In this document: one piece after another, positions 16,925 to 64,000 of the stretch
Layout: every line of letters begins with the position of its first letter
How positions within the stretch are numbered: position 1 is the stretch's first letter
NCBI GenBank assembly: GCA_024614665.1
Contig: GCA_024614665.1_4861.1
Direction: 5' to 3' (one strand)
DNA from: a phage
DNA length: 64,000 nucleotides
Translations under genes and position numbers: made by a program
Notes under the pieces: model-generated
Database searches by the model: none
What the model saw: only the letters and a program-made list of their open reading frames with translations
Told to the model about the DNA's origin: nothing

Positions 16925-17404
16925 TCATTGCACAAGGCAACTACTTCTGTGCCGTTCGTAGGCACGATTAAAAGACACTCTGTCTTCGCGATAGCCGCGA
17001 ATGAGAGACTTAATCTGTCGTGACAAATCACGACTAATGTCTTGAGGGCTACGAGAACCAGGGTCGAGATATATCCCAGTGGGTATATCATGAAGAGTGG
17101 GGCGAATAAACTCTTCACAAAGCGGTGCGGCCATCGGGGTGCGCCACCCCTTAGCTTCTGCGTAATTGTTCAACGACTTAGCGTACAGATAAACGTAATA
17201 AGCATAAGCGTTCACATCCGCAACAAACATTTTCCCTGCCAGCTTTTTCGCCTCAGGACTGTTCCCACCGACATAAACTGGTGGGTGTTCTAAAGGACGA
17301 AAAGGCCAATCTCCGGTTGAGGAGTAATCTGGGTCTACGTGACGGATGACCCCAGGGCATCCTGTCAACAATAGCACCAATATCGCCGCCAAAAATAACT
17401 TCAT
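16925..17404 (-). CDS. putative lipoprotein (159 aa)
   Basis: N-terminus MKLFLAAILVLLLTGC = signal peptide with lipobox LTGC; terminator hairpin downstream. Confidence 0.5.
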   Translation of the reverse strand: MKLFLAAILVLLLTGCPGVIRHVDPDYSSTGDWPFRPLEHPPVYVGGNSPEAKKLAGKMFVADVNAYAYYVYLYAKSLNNYAEAKGWRTPMAAPLCEEFIRPTLHDIPTGIYLDPGSRSPQDISRDLSRQIKSLIRGYREDRVSFNRAYERHRSSCLVQ

Positions 17405-17413
17405 GTATGCTCC

Positions 17414-17929
17414 TCATGGATTATTAAGCGTACTGATAATCTCCTGTCGGAAATCATTTGCCTCCTGCGACCCTACCGGGCGAGAAGCGGCCTGGTGTTT
17501 CTTGGCAGGTGGGCTAGACGGATTTAACGGTGCCGGCGGTGTTACCGGCTTGGGTTCTACAGGCGGAACCGCGGCCCCAGTGCCTGTTCCTGTTGGAGAT
17601 TTGGTACCATCATATGGCGGTCGAGAACCCAGGCACGTGAAGAGACGATCGTACAACTTATTGTTCTCCACTTCGCCGTGATCGGACTTCTCTTTTAGCT
17701 CCTTATAGGATATCTCCAGATACTGAGTACGCGATTGAACGCTAACCAGTGTGTGGTATTGAACAATATAGGCATATGAGACAAATGCAGAGAACGCGAT
17801 CAGTGCCACTATCACTAGTGTCACTATTTTCCCGGCTCGTGTTACTTTCTCCCCCTCGCCCGGTTTAAATGCTTCCCACAGTATCTGTAAGAATGGAAGC
17901 AGTTTGAAAACTGATGCTATCATGCTCAC
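17414..17929 (-). CDS. membrane protein with Pro-rich periplasmic/cytoplasmic tail (171 aa)
   Basis: Hydrophobic segments (KIVTLVIVALIAFSAFVSYAYIV); Pro-rich PVEPKPVTPPAPLNPSSPP. Confidence 0.45.
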   Translation of the reverse strand: MSMIASVFKLLPFLQILWEAFKPGEGEKVTRAGKIVTLVIVALIAFSAFVSYAYIVQYHTLVSVQSRTQYLEISYKELKEKSDHGEVENNKLYDRLFTCLGSRPPYDGTKSPTGTGTGAAVPPVEPKPVTPPAPLNPSSPPAKKHQAASRPVGSQEANDFRQEIISTLNNP

Positions 17930-21211: not shown

Positions 21212-21478
21212 CTAGTTACGGTCGGAATTAAAGACGTGCCAGGTACTACGCCAGCGAAAGAATCGGGTCATGAAACCACGCACGTGGTAGCCTGAGAACA
21301 ACATCCAGATCGTGAGAAAAAGCTGCGCCCATGGAGTGGTGAGTTCCATCAAATGTGCGACTATCGCACCAACTATCAACATTACCGTGGAGAATAACAA
21401 ACCATACATCATCGGAATGTTGTGGCTATAGTGTTTCTCCATCCAGTAGAGAAAATTTATTAAACGTTTCACGAACAC
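21212..21478 (-). CDS. small membrane protein (88 aa)
   Basis: Two hydrophobic helices (LLFSTVMLIVGAIVAHL, LFLTIWMLFSGY). Confidence 0.4.
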   Translation of the reverse strand: MFVKRLINFLYWMEKHYSHNIPMMYGLLFSTVMLIVGAIVAHLMELTTPWAQLFLTIWMLFSGYHVRGFMTRFFRWRSTWHVFNSDRN

Positions 21479-21529: not shown

Positions 21530-22123
21530 TTACGCATCGGCCTCAAAGAACGGCTGGTTTGGTACCACTGCGTATTCGAGCACGAACAGATGTTCTGGGG
21601 CATCTTCTGCTCGCCACAGTTTGTGACACGTTGCCAGTTTTTCCAGGATGGTCAGCCAGCTGAGTTGGCAAAACGCACGATCGCCGAAGAACAGTTTCTG
21701 CAGTGCAATTGACACATCCATATACGCCTGTTTGAAGTCGAGCCCTTTATCGTAACCTGCCGACTGTCGCCAGGTCAGCACGAAACCTGCTTCGGTTTCG
21801 TTAATTGCTGGACGTAAACCACAAATCCACATCAGTGCCAGATTAACGTTCCAGTCGAATTCGATACCTTCGTCTTCGTCATCACCAAACGCCGCGTTTA
21901 ACGCGTCGTAGAAACCGTGGTTCTCTGCGAACCATTCGCCGTACTCAACGTAGACCGGTGCTTCGACAGCCTCCCCATCGACTTCACCGATAGGGCGCTC
22001 TACATAGTTCGGGTTGGTTTGAACGTGTTCCGCACCCGCGCGAATCAGTTCGTAGACATCTTTGGCGGTGATTTGTGCGGCTGTTTTAAGACCTGGATAC
22101 CAGGGGCGTGTTACGAGTGTCAA
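21530..22123 (-). CDS. hypothetical protein (197 aa)
   Basis: Intact ORF; terminator hairpin downstream. Confidence 0.45.
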   Translation of the reverse strand: MTLVTRPWYPGLKTAAQITAKDVYELIRAGAEHVQTNPNYVERPIGEVDGEAVEAPVYVEYGEWFAENHGFYDALNAAFGDDEDEGIEFDWNVNLALMWICGLRPAINETEAGFVLTWRQSAGYDKGLDFKQAYMDVSIALQKLFFGDRAFCQLSWLTILEKLATCHKLWRAEDAPEHLFVLEYAVVPNQPFFEADA

Positions 22124-22881
22124 AGCAGTGCTCCTTTCATGATGGTGTTATTTGCCAGTAATGTACCGGCCGCAGGTGATATTTTGGTGTACAGCGTATC
22201 CCAGATTTTCTGAAGTTCAGCGACGCGTTGGTCGTGGTCTTCCTTCGCAAAAGCAAGCTGACGTGTTTCAGCTTTCGGTGGCGTCATTTTCGCACCGTAG
22301 AATGCTGCGTCTTTTCGGTAACTGGCCATCCAGCGTTTCCCGACCGGTGATTTCTTTTTAATCATCGCAACAGCAGCACTCTCACCGAAGCGGTAGCCTA
22401 ATGCGATTTCGGCTGTGCTCGGCTTGCGTTTGAGTTGTTTCGTCAGATGATCCTCGATGTGTTTCATGTAAACAGCAGCAAGCTGTACAGCATATTTCGG
22501 TTTATTAAGGTCTGCGTTCTTTGGGATGTTAAGTTGTTTCCCATACAGACGTATCATGGAGCGTTTAGTGCCTGTCGTCATTTGGACAACACTACTAGCA
22601 CTGCTCGATTTATTCTTACCCACGTTTTTATTAAAACGGGATTCACGGTAAATAGTGGTCGCAAGCATCCCGGCGTGTACACCTTGCTTTTGAGATGCGG
22701 AGACGATGAGAGGTTTAATCTCATTGAACTGGTCCTGGATAAGGACAAATTCTTTTTGATGTTTGTTACTGGTGGACTGGTAAGAAGCGTTGCTGTTGAA
22801 TGTGGTCACTGCTACCAGAAGAAATAAAATGGTGCGAAACATGGATGTTCTCCAAATGGATTTATACTTTTCCGTTCCCAA
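22120..22881 (-). CDS. putative exported lytic transglycosylase-like (SLT-like) protein
   Basis: N-terminal hydrophobic signal (MFRTILFLLVAVTTF from internal ATG); ESRFN...SSVVQMT...GYRFG resembles SLT catalytic Glu-Ser region; start uncertain. Confidence 0.4.
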   Translation of the reverse strand: MGTEKYKSIWRTSMFRTILFLLVAVTTFNSNASYQSTSNKHQKEFVLIQDQFNEIKPLIVSASQKQGVHAGMLATTIYRESRFNKNVGKNKSSSASSVVQMTTGTKRSMIRLYGKQLNIPKNADLNKPKYAVQLAAVYMKHIEDHLTKQLKRKPSTAEIALGYRFGESAAVAMIKKKSPVGKRWMASYRKDAAFYGAKMTPPKAETRQLAFAKEDHDQRVAELQKIWDTLYTKISPAAGTLLANNTIMKGALL

Positions 22882-25277: not shown

Positions 25278-25390
25278 TTCGTAATTACCCTCCTGTTAAA
25301 ACCAACCTTGCGTCAATGCAAGGATTGCGCCTAGGGCGTATGCGCCTGCTCCTAGTATCAGGCTACAGACGATACACCCAATCCATTTCA

Positions 25391-25522
25391 CTAAAATAGC
25401 CACGTTACTACAAACGCTCCGATTGCGCAAACGATAAACGTGATACCAACATCTGTCCAGGTGGCACCGTCATACGCACCCGTTGCAATCATCGCCGCGT
25501 TGACACTATTCACGACTGTCAT
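25391..25522 (-). CDS. small hydrophobic peptide (43 aa)
   Basis: Not in the ORF track (below its length cut-off); ATG...TAG; translation MTVVNSVNAAMIATGAYDGATWTDVGITFIVCAIGAFVVTWLF. Confidence 0.25.
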   Translation of the reverse strand: MTVVNSVNAAMIATGAYDGATWTDVGITFIVCAIGAFVVTWLF

Positions 25523-25709
25523 AAGCCGGGTCCCTTAAACGTGGGGGCTTGCTCCACAGATTACCGAAGTAAACCCCTTCTAAGAACACCAAAACAACTA
25601 ATCCCCAAAAGGCAGGCGTGGCACGAGACAAGAAAATACCCAGCAGCACCGCAGTGTGCATTACCACAACTGCCCAAAACTTTAAACGTCGCGGTTTACG
25701 TGTTGCCAT
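25506..25709 (-). CDS. small membrane protein (about 67 aa)
   Basis: Start at internal ATG (MATRKPRRLKFWAVVVMHTAVLLGIF) with AAAGGA upstream; one TM helix. Confidence 0.35.
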   Translation of the reverse strand: MATRKPRRLKFWAVVVMHTAVLLGIFLSRATPAFWGLVVLVFLEGVYFGNLWSKPPRLRDPAYDSRE

Positions 25710-25796
25710 GGAATGCCCATCCTTTCGTGCGGATAATCCAATCCCAGGCACCACGAATTAACCACAGCGCAATACCGGTTAGTACAATACCTTCGA

Positions 25797-25988
25797 TCAT
25801 GACCGTTCCCCTACATCTCGCCACTCACAACGTGTGTCGAACAGACGTTCTTTAAGAGCAGCAGCTAAATAAACAACCGCAGCGATAACCACTACGGTTG
25901 CACAAAAGGAGAGGTACAGTACCATCACAACAAACTGAAGGAACTGAAAACCCCACCAAGCCCATAAGCGCCAACCTTTATGATGCAT
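25797..25988 (-). CDS. small membrane protein (63 aa)
   Basis: Trp-rich hydrophobic N-terminus and second helix VVVIAAVVYLAAAL. Confidence 0.35.
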   Translation of the reverse strand: MHHKGWRLWAWWGFQFLQFVVMVLYLSFCATVVVIAAVVYLAAALKERLFDTRCEWRDVGERS

Positions 25989-56048: not shown

Positions 56049-57369
56049 CAGCGAACAGCAAATCCAGTACACACCACGCACGTATCAGGTTGTGACTAAC
56101 CTGTCATGTAATCTGGACTGCGAATACTGCTACGAGCGTAAATATCCTCGTAACAACAAAGTAGCAGACGTGATTGATTTTATCCACGCTTGTTTCGAGC
56201 GTGATAAAGATATCCCGAACGTTGAGGTCATCATCGATATCATCGGTGGTGAGCCGTTCATGCAGCCTAAACTTCTTTTGGCGGCCTTTGAAACCGCAGA
56301 GAAGTTATGCGCAGAACACAATCGCCCGTATATGTTCAGTATCTCCACGAACGGTACACTTCTGGACCGTCCGCTGAACAAAGAAATTATCGAGCGCTGG
56401 AAAGACAAACTGTCTATTGGGGTCTCCATCGATGGTTTACCTGAAGTCCATGACAAATATCGTATCTTTACCACGACGCGTGAAGGGTCGTACGAAGCTG
56501 CGGTACGCGGTTACAATTATCTGAAGAGTGTTGGCATCGCTGAATTAGGCGTAAAGGCGACGTTTACGATCGATACATTGCCGCACTATGCCGCCAGCAT
56601 GAAATCGTTAATTGACATGTCCGGCGGTGGTACCATTTCTGGTAACGTAACGTACGAAGATATCCTGCCGCGCCATATGGCGTTGGATATCGCGAACCAG
56701 ATGATGGACGTGATGGACTACTGGATTGAGAAGGGTCTGCACACCAACCCGCGTAACACGATTACACACATCATCCCGGATGGCCTGAACTTTATGGCAA
56801 CTTGGGACCCGGATTGGCGTGACAAACTCTTACATGACGACTCTGTTCGTCTCGACCCAGAACGCCTGAAACCGTACTGCGGTACGTTGACGCACATGAC
56901 CTGTCTCGGCTTTGATCGCAAGATTTACGGTTGTAACCGTTTCATGTCCACGGTAACTTCCCGTTCTGCTGTAGCAGAACTGGTCGGTCGTGAGTTTGTG
57001 AGCCTGGACGGTGGTAAGTTGTTAGAAGAGATTCAAACACAGTACACCAACTACCCAGAAACCTGTTTAGGGTGTCCGATGAAACACAGTTGCGGTAGCT
57101 GCGCAGCAGCATCGTACGAAAACGGTGAAGGTACACTGGAAGACCGTAAAGCGTATCACGCCGAGCGTCGTCAGTGTGGTTGGACTACTGCGAAGCTGAT
57201 GGCGGCGGAATATTGGTATCAGAAAACTGGTACGACCCGCGCATCAGATTTGCATGATAAATCCATGTGCTATTGTTCACGTTGTGTACGCCAACGTGCT
57301 GAAGCAGAAAAATTACAAAACGGAGCCCAGAATGAAGTCAATACTGATTCACAATTTTACGAAGCGTAA
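56041..57369 (+). CDS. radical SAM enzyme 2 with SPASM-like C-terminal Cys cluster (442 aa)
   Basis: CNLDCEYC and IIGGEPFMQP; C-terminal CGTLTHMTC...CLGCPMKHSCGSC...CYCSRC; ATGAGTAA overlap with enzyme 1. Confidence 0.7.
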   Translation: MSNSEQQIQYTPRTYQVVTNLSCNLDCEYCYERKYPRNNKVADVIDFIHACFERDKDIPNVEVIIDIIGGEPFMQPKLLLAAFETAEKLCAEHNRPYMFSISTNGTLLDRPLNKEIIERWKDKLSIGVSIDGLPEVHDKYRIFTTTREGSYEAAVRGYNYLKSVGIAELGVKATFTIDTLPHYAASMKSLIDMSGGGTISGNVTYEDILPRHMALDIANQMMDVMDYWIEKGLHTNPRNTITHIIPDGLNFMATWDPDWRDKLLHDDSVRLDPERLKPYCGTLTHMTCLGFDRKIYGCNRFMSTVTSRSAVAELVGREFVSLDGGKLLEEIQTQYTNYPETCLGCPMKHSCGSCAAASYENGEGTLEDRKAYHAERRQCGWTTAKLMAAEYWYQKTGTTRASDLHDKSMCYCSRCVRQRAEAEKLQNGAQNEVNTDSQFYEA

Positions 57370-57898
57370 ACTGCACTTGGTCGATCGCTTCCTGCGCAAA
57401 AGCAAGCTGTACAATGTGCACGCAATTGTGGCAGGGGAAGACTTCACTGATGAAATCCAAAGCCTGTTGATTAAATACGGGCTGAATGTGATGATCCCGG
57501 TCTACTGCGTTGAGAAAGGACACGAGTCTGTCGCGGAAATCGAAAAGCGCAACCCCGGCTTTGAGAAGCGACTGCTTGCATACCCACGCCACAAAATCGA
57601 ACTGCTACGTCACTCTATTGATGAAGCCAGTCCTGAAAGTTTAGTGGCTTTGGGCTTGTCTTTCCCGCGGATGCGTATTCGTAACTTACGCTCCAATAAC
57701 CCGGTTGACGCTTATTACACAGAGCGTCAAATCTTCGAAGAACACCTGCTCCCGCAGTTGGAAGAAGAAGAGCAACACAACATTTCTCTGTTGTGGGCCG
57801 GTAACCTCGATCAGGACTTCCAGATGCTGGACTTCGGTTTGTTGTTAGAACTTGGCCTGATTGAGGAGGACGAATGTCTGTTACTGACAAAAGCTTAA
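57332..57898 (+). CDS. hypothetical protein in cassette (about 188 aa)
   Basis: Start at ATG with GGAG RBS (MKSILIHNF); overlaps end of radical SAM 2. Confidence 0.45.
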   Translation: MKSILIHNFTKRKLHLVDRFLRKSKLYNVHAIVAGEDFTDEIQSLLIKYGLNVMIPVYCVEKGHESVAEIEKRNPGFEKRLLAYPRHKIELLRHSIDEASPESLVALGLSFPRMRIRNLRSNNPVDAYYTERQIFEEHLLPQLEEEEQHNISLLWAGNLDQDFQMLDFGLLLELGLIEEDECLLLTKA

Positions 57899-58545
57899 CG
57901 AACGAAGAGATCCGCGCCCGTTATTTCCAGCGTGATTTGCCGATTGATCGTCACGGTAATTTCATGGAACGAATCGGTGCGCAGGATCAGGGCCGTACAG
58001 GCTTTTGCGCTCTGCTCCATTATCATCTCATCGAAGGGATGTCTGATAAAGAAGCCCTGGCACGCATGAAGCTGTATGAGATGTCGGAGATTGAAGCTAA
58101 CTTCACATTGAAACGCACGAAAGAGTTTATTGCTAATGTGCTGGAGATTGACCTCGACGAAATTCGCGGGAATCTGAAATCTACCGCACGTTACATTTAC
58201 GAAGACGTGCAGAAGATGCTGTTGGAGCTTGACCACCGCTACGAAGATGAGCGTCATGGTTATATCGAGTTTGAAGGTAGTCACTTTCAAGCCGATGAAT
58301 CGTCGCGTACCATCCTCGGTCAATACATTCAGGCAGATACCGCACCAGAATACTGGCTCGATACGCTGAATACTAAGCACAGTCCGTTTACAGTAGCCCA
58401 ATGTAAAGCGTTGCTGGCCGCTATTGTTGCACGTGACCAAGTGTTGCACTCAGCAATGGCAGATAACAAACGCCATATCCGTGAGTTAGCTGAAAAGCGC
58501 GATTACACTGGATTAAAAACATTGTCCGAATCTCTCGGCATTTAA
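57874..58545 (+). CDS. hypothetical protein in cassette (223 aa)
   Basis: GGAGGA RBS; followed by bidirectional terminator. Confidence 0.45.
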   Translation: MSVTDKSLTNEEIRARYFQRDLPIDRHGNFMERIGAQDQGRTGFCALLHYHLIEGMSDKEALARMKLYEMSEIEANFTLKRTKEFIANVLEIDLDEIRGNLKSTARYIYEDVQKMLLELDHRYEDERHGYIEFEGSHFQADESSRTILGQYIQADTAPEYWLDTLNTKHSPFTVAQCKALLAAIVARDQVLHSAMADNKRHIRELAEKRDYTGLKTLSESLGI

Positions 58546-58547
58546 GC

Positions 58548-58602
58548 AAAGAAAATAAAGGCCCTACCTCCCTTCGGGGAGGTAGGTACCTTATTTTATT
58601 TC
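58548..58602. terminator. bidirectional intrinsic terminator
   Basis: A-rich run, stem cctacctccc/gggaggtagg, T-run CCTTATTTTATTTC. Confidence 0.6.
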
Positions 58603-58625
58603 TTAGAAACTACTAAGTTGTTTTG

Positions 58626-59153
58626 TTAAACGAATCCGTCCAGTTCACCGTTGGTGGTGCTCAGGTCAGTTTTAACGATTGGCTGCGTTACAGTATAAAC
58701 TGCAGGGCTGCCAGGTCGGTATTTAATGTGGCCTGATTTCACCTTAACAGTGATGACTTTCTCACCACTGCTGCCGTCCACGCGTTTAATGATGAGTTCA
58801 GACAATGCAAACGCATCTTCCGTTTTACCGGCGGCAATTAGATCTGCGTTGACAAAAGCAAGCACTTCTTCATCGGTATCCCATTCTGCCTGGTCAGCGG
58901 TAACTGCCTTCTCACCGATGATGTCCGATAAATTGAGGCGGGTATAATGCAGCTCTTTCACGCCAGTAAAGTTAGCGGATTCCGCGGTGGCGGTGATGGT
59001 GAGATTGGTGTTGCGAGTGTCTCCAGAATCTGCTGGTGAATAGTCAGCAACAGCGCCGAATGTAACGTCAGCAGCAGTTAACGGACTAGGCAGTCCGCTG
59101 TTTGCAGCATTAAACAGCGCGACGAGTTGGTCTTTTGCAGAGATGACTGCCAT
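58626..59153 (-). CDS. hypothetical protein, possibly structural (175 aa)
   Basis: Intact ORF; Thr/Ala/Val-rich composition; function unknown. Confidence 0.45.
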   Translation of the reverse strand: MAVISAKDQLVALFNAANSGLPSPLTAADVTFGAVADYSPADSGDTRNTNLTITATAESANFTGVKELHYTRLNLSDIIGEKAVTADQAEWDTDEEVLAFVNADLIAAGKTEDAFALSELIIKRVDGSSGEKVITVKVKSGHIKYRPGSPAVYTVTQPIVKTDLSTTNGELDGFV

Positions 59154-59280
59154 GGTTGTTTCCTTATAGTAGGTTTGTGGTGCATACTAAATCGTTCTAA
59201 AAAAAATACATAGTGGGCTTAATATGACAGTAAAGTTGACTGTTAAACGAGAAAATTATTTACCACTGAAAGGATACCTT

Positions 59281-59772
59281 ATGAAACGTCTATTTATCGT
59301 ATTCGCGATTATAAACCTGTTGGCCGGTTGTGTTCAGTCGCCAAGCAACATAGGGCAATTTAGCGCCACACCGGTAAAGAATCACGACTTGGTGATTTAT
59401 ACATGCACAGGGACGCAGGAGAAGTTTGTAGACTACCGTCCGGTTCTGGACAACCTACAAATGATGCCGCGGTCAGTAACAGTATTGGATGTGGGTGCAA
59501 ACTGGGTAGCAACGTGGGACGGCGGCAAACTAGAGTCGCCGATGATGTTTAAAGACATGATCGGCAAAATCGACGGGAATGTTAACACCACCACGGGCGA
59601 GCGTTATTACCGTATTAATAAAACCGTAAACGATGGCCCCACTTATTCTTTTTCGGATGTGAACCCGCATACCGGGGAAGGTAAAGGGATGACGTTCTTT
59701 CGCTGCAATGGCGGCCTTATTGACGAAGTTCCTACCCCGATTACGATTGTTCCGTTAGAAGAAAATAAATAG
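59281..59772 (+). CDS. putative lipoprotein (about 163 aa)
   Basis: ATG with AAAGGA RBS; MKRLFIVFAIINLLAGC = signal peptide + lipobox LAGC; own terminator. Confidence 0.5.
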   Translation: MKRLFIVFAIINLLAGCVQSPSNIGQFSATPVKNHDLVIYTCTGTQEKFVDYRPVLDNLQMMPRSVTVLDVGANWVATWDGGKLESPMMFKDMIGKIDGNVNTTTGERYYRINKTVNDGPTYSFSDVNPHTGEGKGMTFFRCNGGLIDEVPTPITIVPLEENK

Positions 59773-59774
59773 TG

Positions 59775-59818
59775 CTTACCCACTCCCGTAAGGGGAGTGG
59801 GTAAGGGCTTTATTTACC
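59775..59818 (+). terminator. intrinsic terminator
   Basis: cttacccactccc-gtaa-ggggagtgggtaag then GGCTTTATTT. Confidence 0.55.
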
Positions 59819-59897
59819 CTCTAAAACGCTCTGTAACGCTCTCTAAAAGCGCTAAACGTATTAGATGATAAATTATATTACTTTTGATTAAAGTAGC

Positions 59898-60413
59898 TTA
59901 GATTTTAACTAGCTTGCTCCAATCGATGGGTTGTTGTTTTACCACTTTAACGGTACCACGCGTTGGTGACCAGAAGGTGATATCAGGCTGGTTGCGTACG
60001 TCAACATGCAGCCAGGTAATATCGCACTCGATAAAGTGAATAAACGGAAACTCGTTAGGGTTCGCGGCAATATAGTCGTGTACTTTCTGCAACGGAGTAT
60101 CAAGCATTGTTGCATCAAACGCATTACCGAATTTATGCATACTGCCTGATTCCGCGTACAGTTTGTTTGCACGAGTTTGCCAATCGCCACCCTTTGGTTT
60201 CTCTTGATTAATAAAGAACTGCAGGGTACGCAGACTACGCTGTTGCTGGGAACTGGTTAAAATCACCATCCGCCCAAAACGATTACGAATCTGTTGGAGC
60301 GAGATTAGCAGTAACGGATTAAGGAAACGAATAGCGCCTTCACCGTATTTCGCGATGTACTCCTGCGGCATCAACTCTTTTAACGCGAAGTTGGCAGGAT
60401 TCGGATGAAACAT
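59898..60413 (-). CDS. LAS-type metallopeptidase (peptidase M15-like) cell-wall hydrolase
   Basis: SMHKFGNAFD (H-x6-D) and WLHVDV motifs as in M15/VanY-type zinc peptidases. Confidence 0.5.
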   Translation of the reverse strand: MFHPNPANFALKELMPQEYIAKYGEGAIRFLNPLLLISLQQIRNRFGRMVILTSSQQQRSLRTLQFFINQEKPKGGDWQTRANKLYAESGSMHKFGNAFDATMLDTPLQKVHDYIAANPNEFPFIHFIECDITWLHVDVRNQPDITFWSPTRGTVKVVKQQPIDWSKLVKI

Positions 60414-60422
60414 TTTCTCTCC

Positions 60423-61064
60423 TTAAGGGGCAGTCAGGAACGCACGTTTGATATTCAAATACTGCACGTTTACCGGTTGCCCATTAGTGATGTCAACACG
60501 TTCGTGTTCAGGAATCGCTAACGTATGCGACGTTCTAAAGAACAGGTAGTTGCGATTATAGGACAGCGTCTTTTCTACCGGCCGACTATAAACCACCTTA
60601 GAGTTATCGTCTACATAGGACGGCCAACCAAACTCGTGAACGGCACGGTAGAAGGACTTACGAATAAAAGTGTCAACGCCTAATGCCTCCATGATGCGTA
60701 AGAACATCAGGTCAGCGAATGTTTTGTCGCAAGCACGAGATAGATTACCTTCAGCGGTGTCAGGGTAAAAGCCTACCGATGAACGTTTCTGGTAAAACAA
60801 ATCATGCACACAAGCGGCAGCAGCCCAAGGGCCATCCGGATGCAGGATAGGACGTAACGCTTCTGGAATACTTGCCAGGTCCGTTACAAATCCTTTCGGC
60901 ACCGTTACCCATAACGGAGTATCCGGATGTACACCTGATAATGCTACCATCGCATCCATTCCGGTGTGTTCACGATACAAGCTGCGCAACGTAAACTCGA
61001 AATGGAAATCATCCGTGAGAATAAACCACGGCTTCTCTAACAACTTATACTTAAGTGCTTCCAT
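60423..61064 (-). CDS. DUF1353-like protein (213 aa)
   Basis: VPKGFVTDLASIP ... CVHDLFY matches the DUF1353 FxTDxASIP...HDxxY pattern as I recall it. Confidence 0.45.
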   Translation of the reverse strand: MEALKYKLLEKPWFILTDDFHFEFTLRSLYREHTGMDAMVALSGVHPDTPLWVTVPKGFVTDLASIPEALRPILHPDGPWAAAACVHDLFYQKRSSVGFYPDTAEGNLSRACDKTFADLMFLRIMEALGVDTFIRKSFYRAVHEFGWPSYVDDNSKVVYSRPVEKTLSYNRNYLFFRTSHTLAIPEHERVDITNGQPVNVQYLNIKRAFLTAP

Positions 61065-61352
61065 ACTGGCCTCACGTCATATAACGCACGAGCATCGTGA
61101 GCGCCATCAATCCCAGTAAAATGGGTATTAAGCCTTTCGGCCAGTCGTCGTTGTCGTATTGCATGGCTTTACCCTCCGACAGAAGATCGCACGTAATAGT
61201 TTGAAGAACCCAGAATCGTAATACGTTTCCGGAACGGTTCGTACTTCAGGGAACATAGGCGGAGTTGGACGGTGGGTCATTACGTTTTCTCCTTGCGGCA
61301 AACACAAGGGCACGCCAGATAGCTTTCATTAAGGTAGCAAACCAATTCTGTT

Positions 61353-61970
61353 TCATTTGCACATCCCCAACTTAGCCGCGTAGTCTGGCATTTCCTGATA
61401 GACGCGCCCATACCAGCCGTAAGTAAACTCTTCGTTATCCTCACGCCTTTCACTGATTTCCGTGTAGTACGCTACCTGATGACAGGTTAAAGCGAACATC
61501 AGTCGATTCAGGCCCTCTTCCCCACGAGCTTTGATAAAGCCTTCTAACGCTGTTAACGTACGTGGACCAATACCGCCATCTGCTTCGATGTCGTCGTACA
61601 GTTTACCCTGACGGTTTAATACGTTCAGAATACGCTGCAGGGACTTGATACAGTTGCCACGACCTGCGTTGATGCCGAAATCAAACATCCGGTCAGCTAG
61701 CAGGACATTCATTTTCATAATCTGGTCTAAGCGCATCCGCTGCCACCAGAGCTTGTTGTAAATGTCTAACGCGGTTTCTAGGCTCAGGTCACGCATATCC
61801 CCTTTATAGCCATATTCACGCGCCGTGAGTTCGGTGACACCACGGTTCGTTGCTTTACCCAAATCTTTCGGGTTATTAACGTAACCGGCTTCGATGTTTA
61901 CTTTGGCACGAATAATGCCCTCTTTACTCCAACGATCGACCACGATAACCTCCTGAGTTGATAGGGTCAT
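61353..61970 (-). CDS. endolysin-like: GH108-type muramidase with PG_binding_3-like C-terminal domain
   Basis: IEAGYVNNPKDLGKATNRGVT resembles GH108 EGGYVNDP...GIT; DGGIGPRTLTAL resembles peptidoglycan-binding motif; start at internal ATG (MTLSTQ), since the longer track ORF runs through a terminator hairpin. Confidence 0.55.
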   Translation of the reverse strand: MTLSTQEVIVVDRWSKEGIIRAKVNIEAGYVNNPKDLGKATNRGVTELTAREYGYKGDMRDLSLETALDIYNKLWWQRMRLDQIMKMNVLLADRMFDFGINAGRGNCIKSLQRILNVLNRQGKLYDDIEADGGIGPRTLTALEGFIKARGEEGLNRLMFALTCHQVAYYTEISERREDNEEFTYGWYGRVYQEMPDYAAKLGMCK

Positions 61971-62002
61971 AAAAAGAAAGCCTCTTCCCCGTGGGGAAGA
62001 GG
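61971..62002 (-). terminator. intrinsic terminator abutting endolysin start
   Basis: cctcttcc/ggaagagg stem followed on minus strand by CTTTCTTTTT then ATG. Confidence 0.45.
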
Positions 62003-62048
62003 GCATGGGTTATCCTCAGGCTTTAACCCCGTCAAGTTCCTCGTTAAA

Positions 62049-63998
62049 TTATGATAACGATTTCTTTGGCCGCTCCCACGGTTTAGGGGCGGATTTGGTA
62101 TACGGATTACATTCCATCATCTTGCCGAGATACGCATCGTAATACACGAAGCGATCGACATAGAACCTCTCCACCGGTGCACTACTGGTAGCCGATTTCA
62201 CCCGGTTGCGTTCCACAGCGAGGTTAATCGTCCCGGTAGGCGCGGGTTTTAGCGTGAACATCACCGCACGGTTGTAACGCCAAGTGTCGTGCACAATATC
62301 AAACTCCGATACACTGTGTGCCATGATACCAAACAATGTGGTGCTCGGTAAATTGGCTACAGCATCACCGTATGGTGTTCCCACCAAACCGCCGGGTAAG
62401 TTTTGCTTTTTGAACAGCGTACCTGAAATAATCGTACCTAAGAACTCCACAACTACAGGCTTGGTTGGGTCGGTGACTTTATCTATCCCATCCGCACTGG
62501 CCAATCTGTTGGCATCTAAATCTGCGAGGTAGTCGAGGAACTCTTGGTACTCGTCGGTGACATTCGGTTTCACCGTTCCGACGGATACCCAGTTGACGAT
62601 ACTTTTATTCCCACCGACAGCTTCGCCTGCCATCCCAGGGCGAGTCCATGACATCCCGTCTTCACGACCGTAGACATAGACTGGCGAGCCGGTAGCCGGG
62701 GTGTTCCATTGCTCGAACGCTGTATATCGTCCCGGCTGGCCCCAATCCCCACCCGGACCGCCATAGTAGCGACTCTGGTAGCCGGTAAATTGTGCGACGA
62801 CTAACTGGGTAGCACCGCCTTTGTCACGGGACCCAGCTAAGCCGTTACGGTTATTGGTGCCACTGGGTACCGCCGCGCCTGGCCCGAGTGGCGCACCACC
62901 AGCTCCACCGATCTTGGTGGTGCTAAACGCATAGTAGTCGCCCCCACCCCCACCACCGGCGATGGTGCCGTAGTTTTCGATGGTGACTTTGCCACGGAAG
63001 GTATCGCTAATGTGGATTGCGTCAGCTCCGTCCGCTGATGTGTTCGCAGGCAGTGAATAGACCATGCCCGAACCACCGCGACCAAGAATGGTTCCCCGGT
63101 TAACGAAGTTCCAAACCACCTCGCCAATTTGCGGCAATTCATCGATAACGAACGTCGGTTTCAGGTTGCTGTCGCGATAAACGAAAGCCCCCGCATCTAC
63201 GGTCACGTTAACAAACAAACGCCCGCACGCCGCATGGTTGGTCAACGTCGTGGCCCAGTAGCTGTCCGAAACTTGCGACGTAGTTGTGTAGTTCAGGTTA
63301 AGGGTTTGCTCGTTATCTTGATAGCGTGCCACATTCAACGTGGCGTTGCCCATGACTTTGTACGAACCCTCTACGGGTGCCAATTGCACTTGTCTTGGCC
63401 ACTCGCCTTCCAGGTTCTCTACAGGAGCAATTTCGTTTACATCAAAAACACCCCGAATGCCGAGTGTCTCGATGGCCAGAGCATCGTGCAGGCTACCGGT
63501 GAAATCATCCGGGACGTATGTGGTTTTGCCTGCATATGTCTCGAGTTTGTTACGTGAGAAGAACACATACTTCGTTCCAAACATCCCGCTCCCCGGTCTA
63601 GCGGTCAAAGCTACGACGCTGTTATACGCAGAGGTTTGGCCTATATCCTCCGGGGACATCGGGGCACTGACATCGACTTTATCAAGATCCACGATCCGTT
63701 TGGTTGCATTAGAGTAGAAGTTAATCCACTGCTGTTTATTCGCAGCCTTTAGCGTGAGAATGATGTTGGTAACAGTGTAGACGGTGTTGATATCCACGTC
63801 ACCGTTTATCACATCTAGCGTTTGGCTGCCGTACCAGATAAGACTTGTCTGTTTCGCCTGGAACGTGATGCGCGCAGCATTGTTTGTCCAAGTGATGGGC
63901 AGGTCTTCAAAGTCGTCGGTTAAAAAGGTAATCCCTAGTAGAGTGTCTAAATGCGGCAACAGTTCGTGGATGGACGCACAAGTGGGAATGGCATCCAA
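62049..63998 (-). CDS. structural (tail/fibre-like) protein with Gly-rich segments, N-terminus possibly beyond window end
   Basis: Long ORF reaching window edge; Gly-rich stretches (GTIAGGGGGGDYY, GGAGGAPLGPG); function inferred only from composition and context. Confidence 0.45.
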   Translation of the reverse strand: MDAIPTCASIHELLPHLDTLLGITFLTDDFEDLPITWTNNAARITFQAKQTSLIWYGSQTLDVINGDVDINTVYTVTNIILTLKAANKQQWINFYSNATKRIVDLDKVDVSAPMSPEDIGQTSAYNSVVALTARPGSGMFGTKYVFFSRNKLETYAGKTTYVPDDFTGSLHDALAIETLGIRGVFDVNEIAPVENLEGEWPRQVQLAPVEGSYKVMGNATLNVARYQDNEQTLNLNYTTTSQVSDSYWATTLTNHAACGRLFVNVTVDAGAFVYRDSNLKPTFVIDELPQIGEVVWNFVNRGTILGRGGSGMVYSLPANTSADGADAIHISDTFRGKVTIENYGTIAGGGGGGDYYAFSTTKIGGAGGAPLGPGAAVPSGTNNRNGLAGSRDKGGATQLVVAQFTGYQSRYYGGPGGDWGQPGRYTAFEQWNTPATGSPVYVYGREDGMSWTRPGMAGEAVGGNKSIVNWVSVGTVKPNVTDEYQEFLDYLADLDANRLASADGIDKVTDPTKPVVVEFLGTIISGTLFKKQNLPGGLVGTPYGDAVANLPSTTLFGIMAHSVSEFDIVHDTWRYNRAVMFTLKPAPTGTINLAVERNRVKSATSSAPVERFYVDRFVYYDAYLGKMMECNPYTKSAPKPWERPKKSLS

Positions 63999-64000
63999 CT

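Follow-up and report, generated by a model that had tools for sequence, protein, structure and literature searches.

The window analyzed here is a 64,000-nucleotide (nt) stretch of a phage genome (assembly GCA_024614665.1, contig GCA_024614665.1_4861.1), and this study concerns three adjacent minus-strand open reading frames (ORFs; 61353-62006, 60423-61064 and 59898-60413) that a first-pass annotation, made from the sequence alone, had described as a cluster of cell-wall hydrolases. The region 57000-64000 aligned over its full length to the genomes of Seoulvirus Salmonella jumbo phages (SaP7, SPN3US and SEGD1) with 96-98% identity, the window as a whole being about 98% identical to SPN3US, and the three genes correspond to SPN3US_0156, 0157 and 0158 (gp156, gp157 and gp158). 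Their RefSeq names are "endolysin", "tail assembly chaperone" and "hypothetical protein", respectively, with gp158 also called "endolysin" in a Pharokka-style record. While the genes are already present in public records, what is new here is the reading of the DUF1353 protein gp157 as a candidate lysis-cassette phospholipase, and the recognition of conserved tiny genes next to it.

The minus strand between 61970 and 59898 is one terminator-bracketed unit of six genes, comprising the three larger genes and three tiny genes (a, b and c) that occupy the 288-nt gap between gp156 and gp157. Hairpins are found on both sides (62002-61981 and 59805-59775), and the six genes therefore form a unit separate from the upstream gene gp155. 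The features of the unit are as follows:

61981..62002, minus strand: terminator-like hairpin between the gp155 stop (62049) and gp156 (9-base-pair stem, 6 GC pairs, T-rich tail)
61353..61970, minus strand: gp156, predicted GH108 muramidase with PG_binding_3 domain (Pfam, PHROG and PDB matches, catalytic Glu)
61246..61356, minus strand: tiny gene a, 36 amino acids (aa), MKQNWFATLMKAIWRALVFAARRKRNDPPSNSAYVP (homologues, codon-position bias)
61128..61280, minus strand: tiny gene b, 50 aa counted from the ATG, core DSGFFKLLRAIFCRRV (homologues, codon-position bias)
61072..61164, minus strand: tiny gene c, 30 aa, predicted single-pass transmembrane (TM) peptide MQYDNDDWPKGLIPILLGLMALTMLVRYMT (TM prediction, homologues, codon test)
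60423..61064, minus strand: gp157, DUF1353, putative member of the TtaP-type phospholipase A2 family (Pfam, catalytic residues)
59898..60413, minus strand: gp158, predicted divergent zinc peptidase of the LAS/M15 fold (metal-site motifs, predicted model)
59775..59805: strong bidirectional terminator hairpin with a 13-base-pair stem and T-rich tail, ending the gp156-gp158 unit and the convergent gene gp159

Enzymes and tiny peptides of the unit

The gp156 protein scored far above the Pfam gathering cutoffs for both Glyco_hydro_108 (PF05838; E = 2.4e-18, 66.9 bits vs. 21.2) and PG_binding_3 (PF09374; E = 4e-20, 72.2 bits vs. 24.6), and its PDB matches were Sen1395 (6V3Z, E = 1e-41) and TtsA (6V40, E = 7e-40, ~45% identity). 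The catalytic glutamate (E27) of the E-G/A-G-Y motif is invariant in the alignment of gp156 with these two proteins, the motifs EAGYVNN and DGGIGPRT are present in the translation, and a sub-threshold NCBIfam match was to "holin-associated N-acetylmuramidase". Judged from its sequence, gp156 is a GH108 N-acetylmuramidase and a near relative of the crystallized TtsA and Sen1395; muramidase activity of TtsA is documented in the literature. The longest version of the gene (61353-62006, 217 aa, ATG at 62006) takes in the terminator hairpin at 62002-61981, and for this reason its start is disfavored. In relatives, the conserved part of the protein begins near VDRWSKEG, directly past a GTG (61943) with AGGAGG ahead of it, so that the start is more likely to be either this GTG or the ATG at 61970 used by RefSeq. 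The GH108 enzymes of jumbo phages are also extended at the C-terminus by ~18 conserved aa, with G-M/V-C-x-K as the last residues (61353-61410, minus strand, in gp156); TtsA and Sen1395 have no such extension.

Pfam assigned gp157 to DUF1353 (PF07087; E = 1.2e-17, 63.8 bits vs. a gathering cutoff of 22.5), and the motifs TDLASIP and VHD appear in its translation. The sole characterized member of this family is TtaP, a 125-aa protein of the typhoid-toxin islet that was found to be a phospholipase A2 (PLA2) distantly related to the group XIV secreted PLA2s, with a catalytic His70/Asp85 dyad, an essential Asp71 and an inactive D85A mutant (PMC11525133, 2024). H87 and D88 do not vary among 28 aligned relatives of gp157, D118 is kept in at least 90% of them, and in short DUF1353 members the His-to-Asp spacing is 15 residues, the same as in TtaP. 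PLA2 relatives of gp157 in the PDB were found by neither single-sequence nor profile search but only by fold comparison, in which the match was modest. Family membership, catalytic residues and this modest fold match together predict that gp157 is plausibly a relative of TtaP-family PLA2s. Since TtaP is a PLA2 and gp157 keeps the catalytic residues, gp157 is, on sequence grounds, not a peptidoglycan enzyme. DUF1353 proteins of jumbo phages carry extra N- and C-terminal regions that are missing in small-phage and bacterial members; some of the bacterial members have lipoprotein signal peptides, and are therefore expected to be periplasmic.

For gp158, the Pfam match to Peptidase_M15_3 (PF08291) covered a short stretch only and fell below the cutoff (E = 0.0076, 16.8 bits vs. 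23.2), NCBIfam gave no match, and PHROG 894, labeled "endolysin", was matched with E = 2.8e-26. Its translation contains SMHKFGNAFD (H-x6-D) and LHVD. It belongs to a small, tight family of 31 clusters that share at least 48% identity and come mainly from jumbo-sized contigs, and R62, H93, G96, D100, E129, D131, W134, H136 and D138 are invariant across 16 sequences; the signatures S-x-H93-x2-G-x-A-x-D100 and H136-x-D138, together with R62, are of the LAS/M15 zinc-site type. A structural model predicted with high confidence (predicted local distance difference test score of 94) had LAS enzymes as its only structural matches; M15 relatives in the PDB were retrieved by fold comparison alone and by neither single-sequence nor profile search. 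Because of the invariant metal-site motifs and the LAS-only fold matches, we accept gp158 as a predicted divergent LAS/M15 zinc peptidase despite its sub-threshold Pfam score. A scan for TM and hydrophobic segments found no signal peptide or TM segment in gp156, gp157 or gp158.

Each of the three tiny genes has homologues in related phages. Gene a (MKQNWFATLMKAIWRALVFAARRKR...) starts at an ATG that shares bases with the gp156 stop codon (ATGA) and encodes a peptide with a net charge of +6; homologues were found in SPAsTU, Asesino, phiEaH2, Erskinevirus and a distant uncultured lineage (the L017 group, MNWFAKLLALLWKALTSGRKRK...). Gene b, preceded by an AAGGAG Shine-Dalgarno sequence, encodes a peptide of net charge +5 with homologues in SPAsTU and Erskinevirus. 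Gene c has a GGAGG Shine-Dalgarno sequence and one TM domain (TMD), ends 7 nt ahead of gp157, and has homologues in SPAsTU and in Machinavirus, where it forms a fusion with the N-terminal portion of gene b. Substitutions among relatives fall mostly at third codon positions, with gene b, for example, showing 2, 1 and 9-11 differences at the three positions and 8-10 synonymous vs. 2-3 non-synonymous codons. Since substitutions are concentrated in this way, genes a-c are translated and under purifying selection. At least one tiny cationic or TM peptide is encoded in all 13 of the GH108-DUF1353 gaps examined.

TM prediction found no TMD in the products of genes a and b, and neither b nor c matched a family when scanned against Pfam and PHROG. 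As a small membrane protein with a TMD that is encoded with an endolysin, the product of gene c agrees with the general description of a holin, and it belongs to no described holin family in Pfam or PHROG. We also considered, and rejected, the idea that the tiny peptides are notably amphipathic: the hydrophobic moment of gene a (0.57, a moderate value) was equaled by 8% of shuffled sequences, and genes b and c were unremarkable.

Genomic neighborhood of DUF1353 genes

Examination of DUF1353 genes in other phages revealed a recurrent association with lysis genes. In jumbo phages, a wall hydrolase adjoins the DUF1353 gene in 21 of 22 loci, with DUF1353 found alone once. The partners vary: GH108, DUF1353 and M15 occur together in Seoulvirus and one uncultured lineage, GH108 and DUF1353 in Erskinevirus and Machinavirus (both with rearranged flanks), and DUF1353 and M15 without GH108 in the Derbicus/Phobos-like group and two uncultured lineages. 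Seoulvirus, Erskinevirus, Machinavirus and one uncultured lineage all preserve the order GH108, tiny ORF(s), DUF1353, even where the flanks have been rearranged.

A scan of viral contigs yielded 33 non-redundant DUF1353 loci in which the top recurrent neighbors were Phage_holin_4_1, Peptidase_M15_4, Phage_lysozyme and Amidase_3, a census that includes several related loci and has no genome-wide null, and for which statistical enrichment is not claimed. In the Fusobacterium phages phiRTG5 and FNU_1P the gene order is endolysin, small ORF(s), DUF1353, holin, and in Pseudomonas phage Bjorn it is lysozyme, DUF1353, terminase; further linkage to lysis genes was seen in other lineages, in the uncultured viral loci L026, L027, L058, L074 and L175. 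The partner endolysins belong to four unrelated types, which argues for a functional rather than an inherited linkage. All named host genera of the 160 cultured phages with DUF1353 are diderm. A 671-aa DUF1353 fusion in one locus (L033) was discarded as a gene-calling artefact.

A possible role in lysis and its alternatives

From these observations we infer that the six genes may form an envelope-disruption module of the lysis type with a phospholipase component, a reading for which we see the case as evenly balanced. According to this model, soluble gp156 would cut the glycan strands and soluble gp158 the peptide stems, after which soluble gp157 would hydrolyze envelope phospholipids to lysophospholipids, weakening the outer or the inner membrane, or both, and so taking over the job of spanins or disruptin in other phages. 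Because the three enzymes have no export signal, the tiny peptides (two of them strongly cationic and one a single-pass TM peptide) might permeabilize the inner membrane or open a way for the enzymes by some other means. The absence of gp156 from the SPN3US virion tables (published mass spectrometry), which also do not include gp198, the SLT-domain protein encoded elsewhere in the window, counts in favor of action at lysis. A broader and more tentative proposal is that DUF1353 PLA2s are a widespread, unrecognized lysis class in diderm phages, acting after the endolysin on the outer (or inner) membrane together with tiny peptides; this proposal would also account for the retention of TtaP next to TtsA, the pair then being the domesticated remnant of such a phage module and providing the missing outer-membrane step of toxin release.

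Besides the bounds of the census given above, a number of observations weigh against a lysis role. The correspondence between gp157 and TtaP was made through Pfam family membership and not by direct alignment, and deletion of ttaP in S. Typhi gave no envelope or secretion phenotype (PMC11525133). The setting of DUF1353 genes is mixed: Campylobacter phages have them amid genes for DNA metabolism, Caulobacter carries them in ordinary chromosomal contexts, and in some loci (e.g., L060) they come directly behind tail-fiber genes, the last arrangement probably having given rise to the "tail assembly" label. None of 80 bacterial loci with TtsA-family muramidase genes had a DUF1353 gene within 4 kb, these loci being prophages with ordinary holins and spanins. 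A general TtsA-DUF1353 pairing in bacterial genomes was rejected on this count, which stayed at zero even with relaxed hidden Markov model thresholds and a motif search; the linkage centers on DUF1353, not on GH108. Finally, gp198 (22120-22881, minus strand; Pfam SLT, E = 2.2e-6, above cutoff), whose catalytic domain is 31% identical to that of phiKZ gp144 (E = 1.5e-10), may serve as the principal endolysin, the function that gp144 has in phiKZ.

The virion data on gp157 also speak against lysis. Published mass spectrometry of wild-type SPN3US virions lists gp157 as "Head" (24.5 kDa, 4 peptides, 9 spectra), and the protein was undetected in 47(am1), 218(am101) and 244(am84) particles, which lack internal/ejection proteins; being missing from these mutants, it fits a packaged protein. 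In addition, the unit sits among the genes of gp155 and gp160, both head proteins by mass spectrometry. A serious alternative is therefore that the unit is an entry module: a few copies of gp157 would travel in the head and enter the cell along with the DNA, where the phospholipase would open the host inner membrane, while gp158 may help to digest the wall locally and only gp156 would act at lysis. Such a role would agree with the detection of gp158 in some particle preparations and not in tailless ones, and with the extra terminal regions of the jumbo-phage DUF1353 proteins. Parvoviruses, which have a PLA2 domain in their virion, would offer a parallel. We nevertheless consider entry somewhat improbable, since the spectra are very few and the same authors deem proteins at such a level, including the traces of gp158, probably non-specific. 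Prohead-protease processing of gp157 has not been reported, the DUF1353 genes of small phages lie between endolysin and holin genes and apart from structural genes, and TtaP remains cell-associated and unsecreted (PMC11525133). The entry model also leaves unexplained why gp157 is so tightly coupled to tiny peptide genes and to a muramidase that is not in the virion. If gp157 were an ejected head protein, it would represent a virion phospholipase used in entry, of which no described case in tailed phages was found in the searchable literature.

Two further readings of the cluster were weighed. The first-pass annotation had taken all three genes for wall hydrolases, one acting as endolysin and the others as virion entry enzymes, with a 30-aa hydrophobic ORF (61072-61164) as a possible holin. 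Much of what it described holds: the three ORFs are present, the motifs that it quoted (GH108, PG-binding, TDLASIP, HD, H-x6-D and HVD) are all found in the translations, domain and fold searches bear out the GH108 and LAS/M15 folds of gp156 and gp158, and, with the SLT gene confirmed, the window encodes at least three distinct wall-cleaving chemistries (GH108, LAS/M15 and SLT). No canonical holin family was detectable, as it had noted, and its 30-aa ORF is a real and conserved gene with a GGAGG sequence, although the gap that contains it (61065-61352) holds three small genes rather than one, of which only gene c has a predicted TMD. As a whole, however, this interpretation appears quite unlikely. 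The DUF1353 motifs are those of the family of the PLA2 TtaP and not peptidoglycan-related, so that gp157 drops out as a hydrolase, and the supposed entry enzymes are not borne out by the virion tables, where gp157 is the one protein of the cluster listed as a virion protein and gp158 appears only as traces. The 30-aa peptide is also shorter than the holins and holin-like lysis factors of the literature consulted (phiKZ gp142, 131 aa; LambdaSo Lcc6, 65 aa), in addition to matching no holin family.

A still less credible reading, which we regard as very improbable, follows the RefSeq and PHROG 1158 label of "tail assembly chaperone" and takes gp157 for a tail or tail-fiber assembly chaperone, with the cluster a chance neighborhood of structural-accessory and lysis genes. 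Apart from the label itself, this could draw on the DUF1353 genes that directly follow tail-fiber genes and on the GP38-adhesin-like domain of the upstream gp155. However, no experiment was found behind the label, the neighbor census contained no recurrent tail-chaperone family, and mass spectrometry places gp155 in the head; moreover, a family-wide invariant catalytic H/D/D set would be unexpected in a chaperone, and TtaP, a member of the family, has proven PLA2 activity.

If the phospholipase does act in lysis, an enzymatic route of membrane destruction would be added to Gram-negative phage lysis, beside spanins, disruptin and LysB. Re-annotation would then be needed for thousands of DUF1353 proteins (nr contains more than 6000; PMC11525133), many of which are labeled "tail assembly chaperone" in phage genomes. 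The role of TtaP in typhoid-toxin biology would become testable in phage, SPN3US having amber-mutant genetics, and the muramidase, peptidase, phospholipase and short cationic peptides, as a set evolved for joint action on the Salmonella envelope, would be candidate enzybiotic components.

Flanking genes, other lysis candidates and known systems

The gene convergent with gp158, gp159 (59281-59772, plus strand), encodes a 163-aa lipoprotein (MKRLFIVFAIINLLAGC) and shares the bidirectional terminator. It falls in PHROG 9559, and relatives are encoded close to the module in Machinavirus and also in the uncultured locus L011 (38% identity); gp159 could act in lysis at the outer membrane or in superinfection exclusion. 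On the other side, gp155 (62049-63998, minus strand) combines DUF7941 with a glycine-rich GP38-adhesin-like domain and has the look of a tail-fiber tip; despite this adhesin-like domain, published mass spectrometry assigned it to the head (28 peptides). The abundant head protein gp160 (58626-59153) has the DUF7941 N-terminal region in common with gp155. Further out, the module is flanked by a DUF4376 protein (57874-58545, plus strand) and two upstream radical-SAM genes, and a block of two radical-SAM genes, a small protein, DUF4376 and DUF1353 is preserved even in distant jumbo contigs (L009, L011). The SPFM records (e.g., LR535901, LR535904 and LR535917) match the region only as 38-40 short pieces, with gp157 and gp158 fragmented, which suggests that these assemblies carry many indel errors.

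Elsewhere in the window, gp198 (taken here as 22120-22842, minus strand; the "putative endolysin" of SPN3US) begins with a hydrophobic signal or anchor sequence (MFRTILFLLVAVTTFNSNA) and is followed by a 197-aa soluble protein (21530-22123, minus strand) and an 88-aa protein (21212-21478, minus strand) that has two hydrophobic segments by eye and one by TM scan. This layout resembles that of a signal-arrest-release (SAR) endolysin with a pinholin, and none of the three proteins is in the virion tables. A spanin-like pair was also found. It consists of a TM protein (17414-17929, minus strand; N-terminal TMD at residues 35-53, then a short helical stretch and a tail rich in Pro) and, 9 nt further on, a 159-aa lipoprotein (16925-17404, minus strand; lipobox LLTGC). 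The pair corresponds to SPN3US gp204/gp205 and is syntenic with phiKZ gp156.1/gp156, a TM protein and a lipoprotein (LISGC) beside RNase H. No similarity was found to the proven phiKZ spanins gp141/141.1, and with synteny to gp156.1/gp156 rather than to these, the pair was downgraded from the spanins of the phage to a candidate. No described holin family was found among the window proteins scanned, including an NCBIfam scan of the other small TM proteins. Four small ORFs (63, 82, 43 and 44 aa) at 25296-25988 (minus strand), just downstream of an SMC-like gene, have 1-2 predicted TM segments each; two of them fall in PHROGs of unassigned function, and none matched a holin family.

The proven lysis cassette of phiKZ, gp141/141.1/142/143/144, consists of an i-spanin, an o-spanin, a class IIIb holin, a regulator and an SLT endolysin (PMC12894885). 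phiKZ is a related nucleus-forming jumbo phage, and the SLT domain of gp198 is the counterpart of gp144; beyond this domain, the window has no BLAST-detectable homologue of the phiKZ spanins, holin or regulator. Conversely, the phiKZ cassette is without GH108, DUF1353 and M15 genes, and gp144 has a peptidoglycan-binding domain where gp198 has its signal or anchor N-terminus.

Export by the typhoid-toxin islet is a holin/endolysin-type "type 10" secretion. The same two families as in the phage unit, a GH108 + PG_binding_3 muramidase (TtsA) and a DUF1353 PLA2 (TtaP), are encoded in this single five-gene islet, where TtsA alone is insufficient for toxin release and perturbation of the outer membrane is required (PMC11525133). 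Neither protein carries a signal peptide in either system. In contrast to the phage unit, the islet serves non-lytic toxin release; the phage proteins are larger (213 aa for gp157, with its extra terminal regions, vs. 125 aa for TtaP), and the unit additionally encodes the three tiny peptides and an M15 peptidase. Prophage cassettes of Salmonella enterica with TtsA-like GH108 enzymes (e.g., L096, L106) share the muramidase family with the unit (45-47% identity) but carry recognizable multi-TM holins on the upstream side and, downstream, a pair of i-spanin and o-spanin genes, and across the 80 loci of this kind neither DUF1353 nor M15 was present.

The closest functional parallels to a lysis phospholipase would be enzymes of unrelated fold. 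Mycobacteriophage LysB is an esterase that attacks the mycolyl-arabinogalactan linkage. Both LysB and the proposed patatin-type cassette of phage WO place a lipid-hydrolyzing enzyme beside or instead of a wall hydrolase, breaching the outer lipid layer at lysis; their folds and substrates are unrelated to those of gp157, the WO enzyme being a patatin-like PLA2 and the WO lytic cassette itself only a hypothesis (PMC9203015). For the tiny peptides, a comparison may be drawn with the disruptin gp28 of phiKT (bioRxiv 10.1101/515445), which at 56 aa is longer than the products of genes a and b (36 and 50 aa). The amphipathicity of gene a is moderate, and the likeness is one of size, charge and context: in both cases a small, strongly cationic, membrane-associating (in our case putatively so) peptide is encoded with the lysis genes, in the case of gene a with translational coupling to the endolysin.

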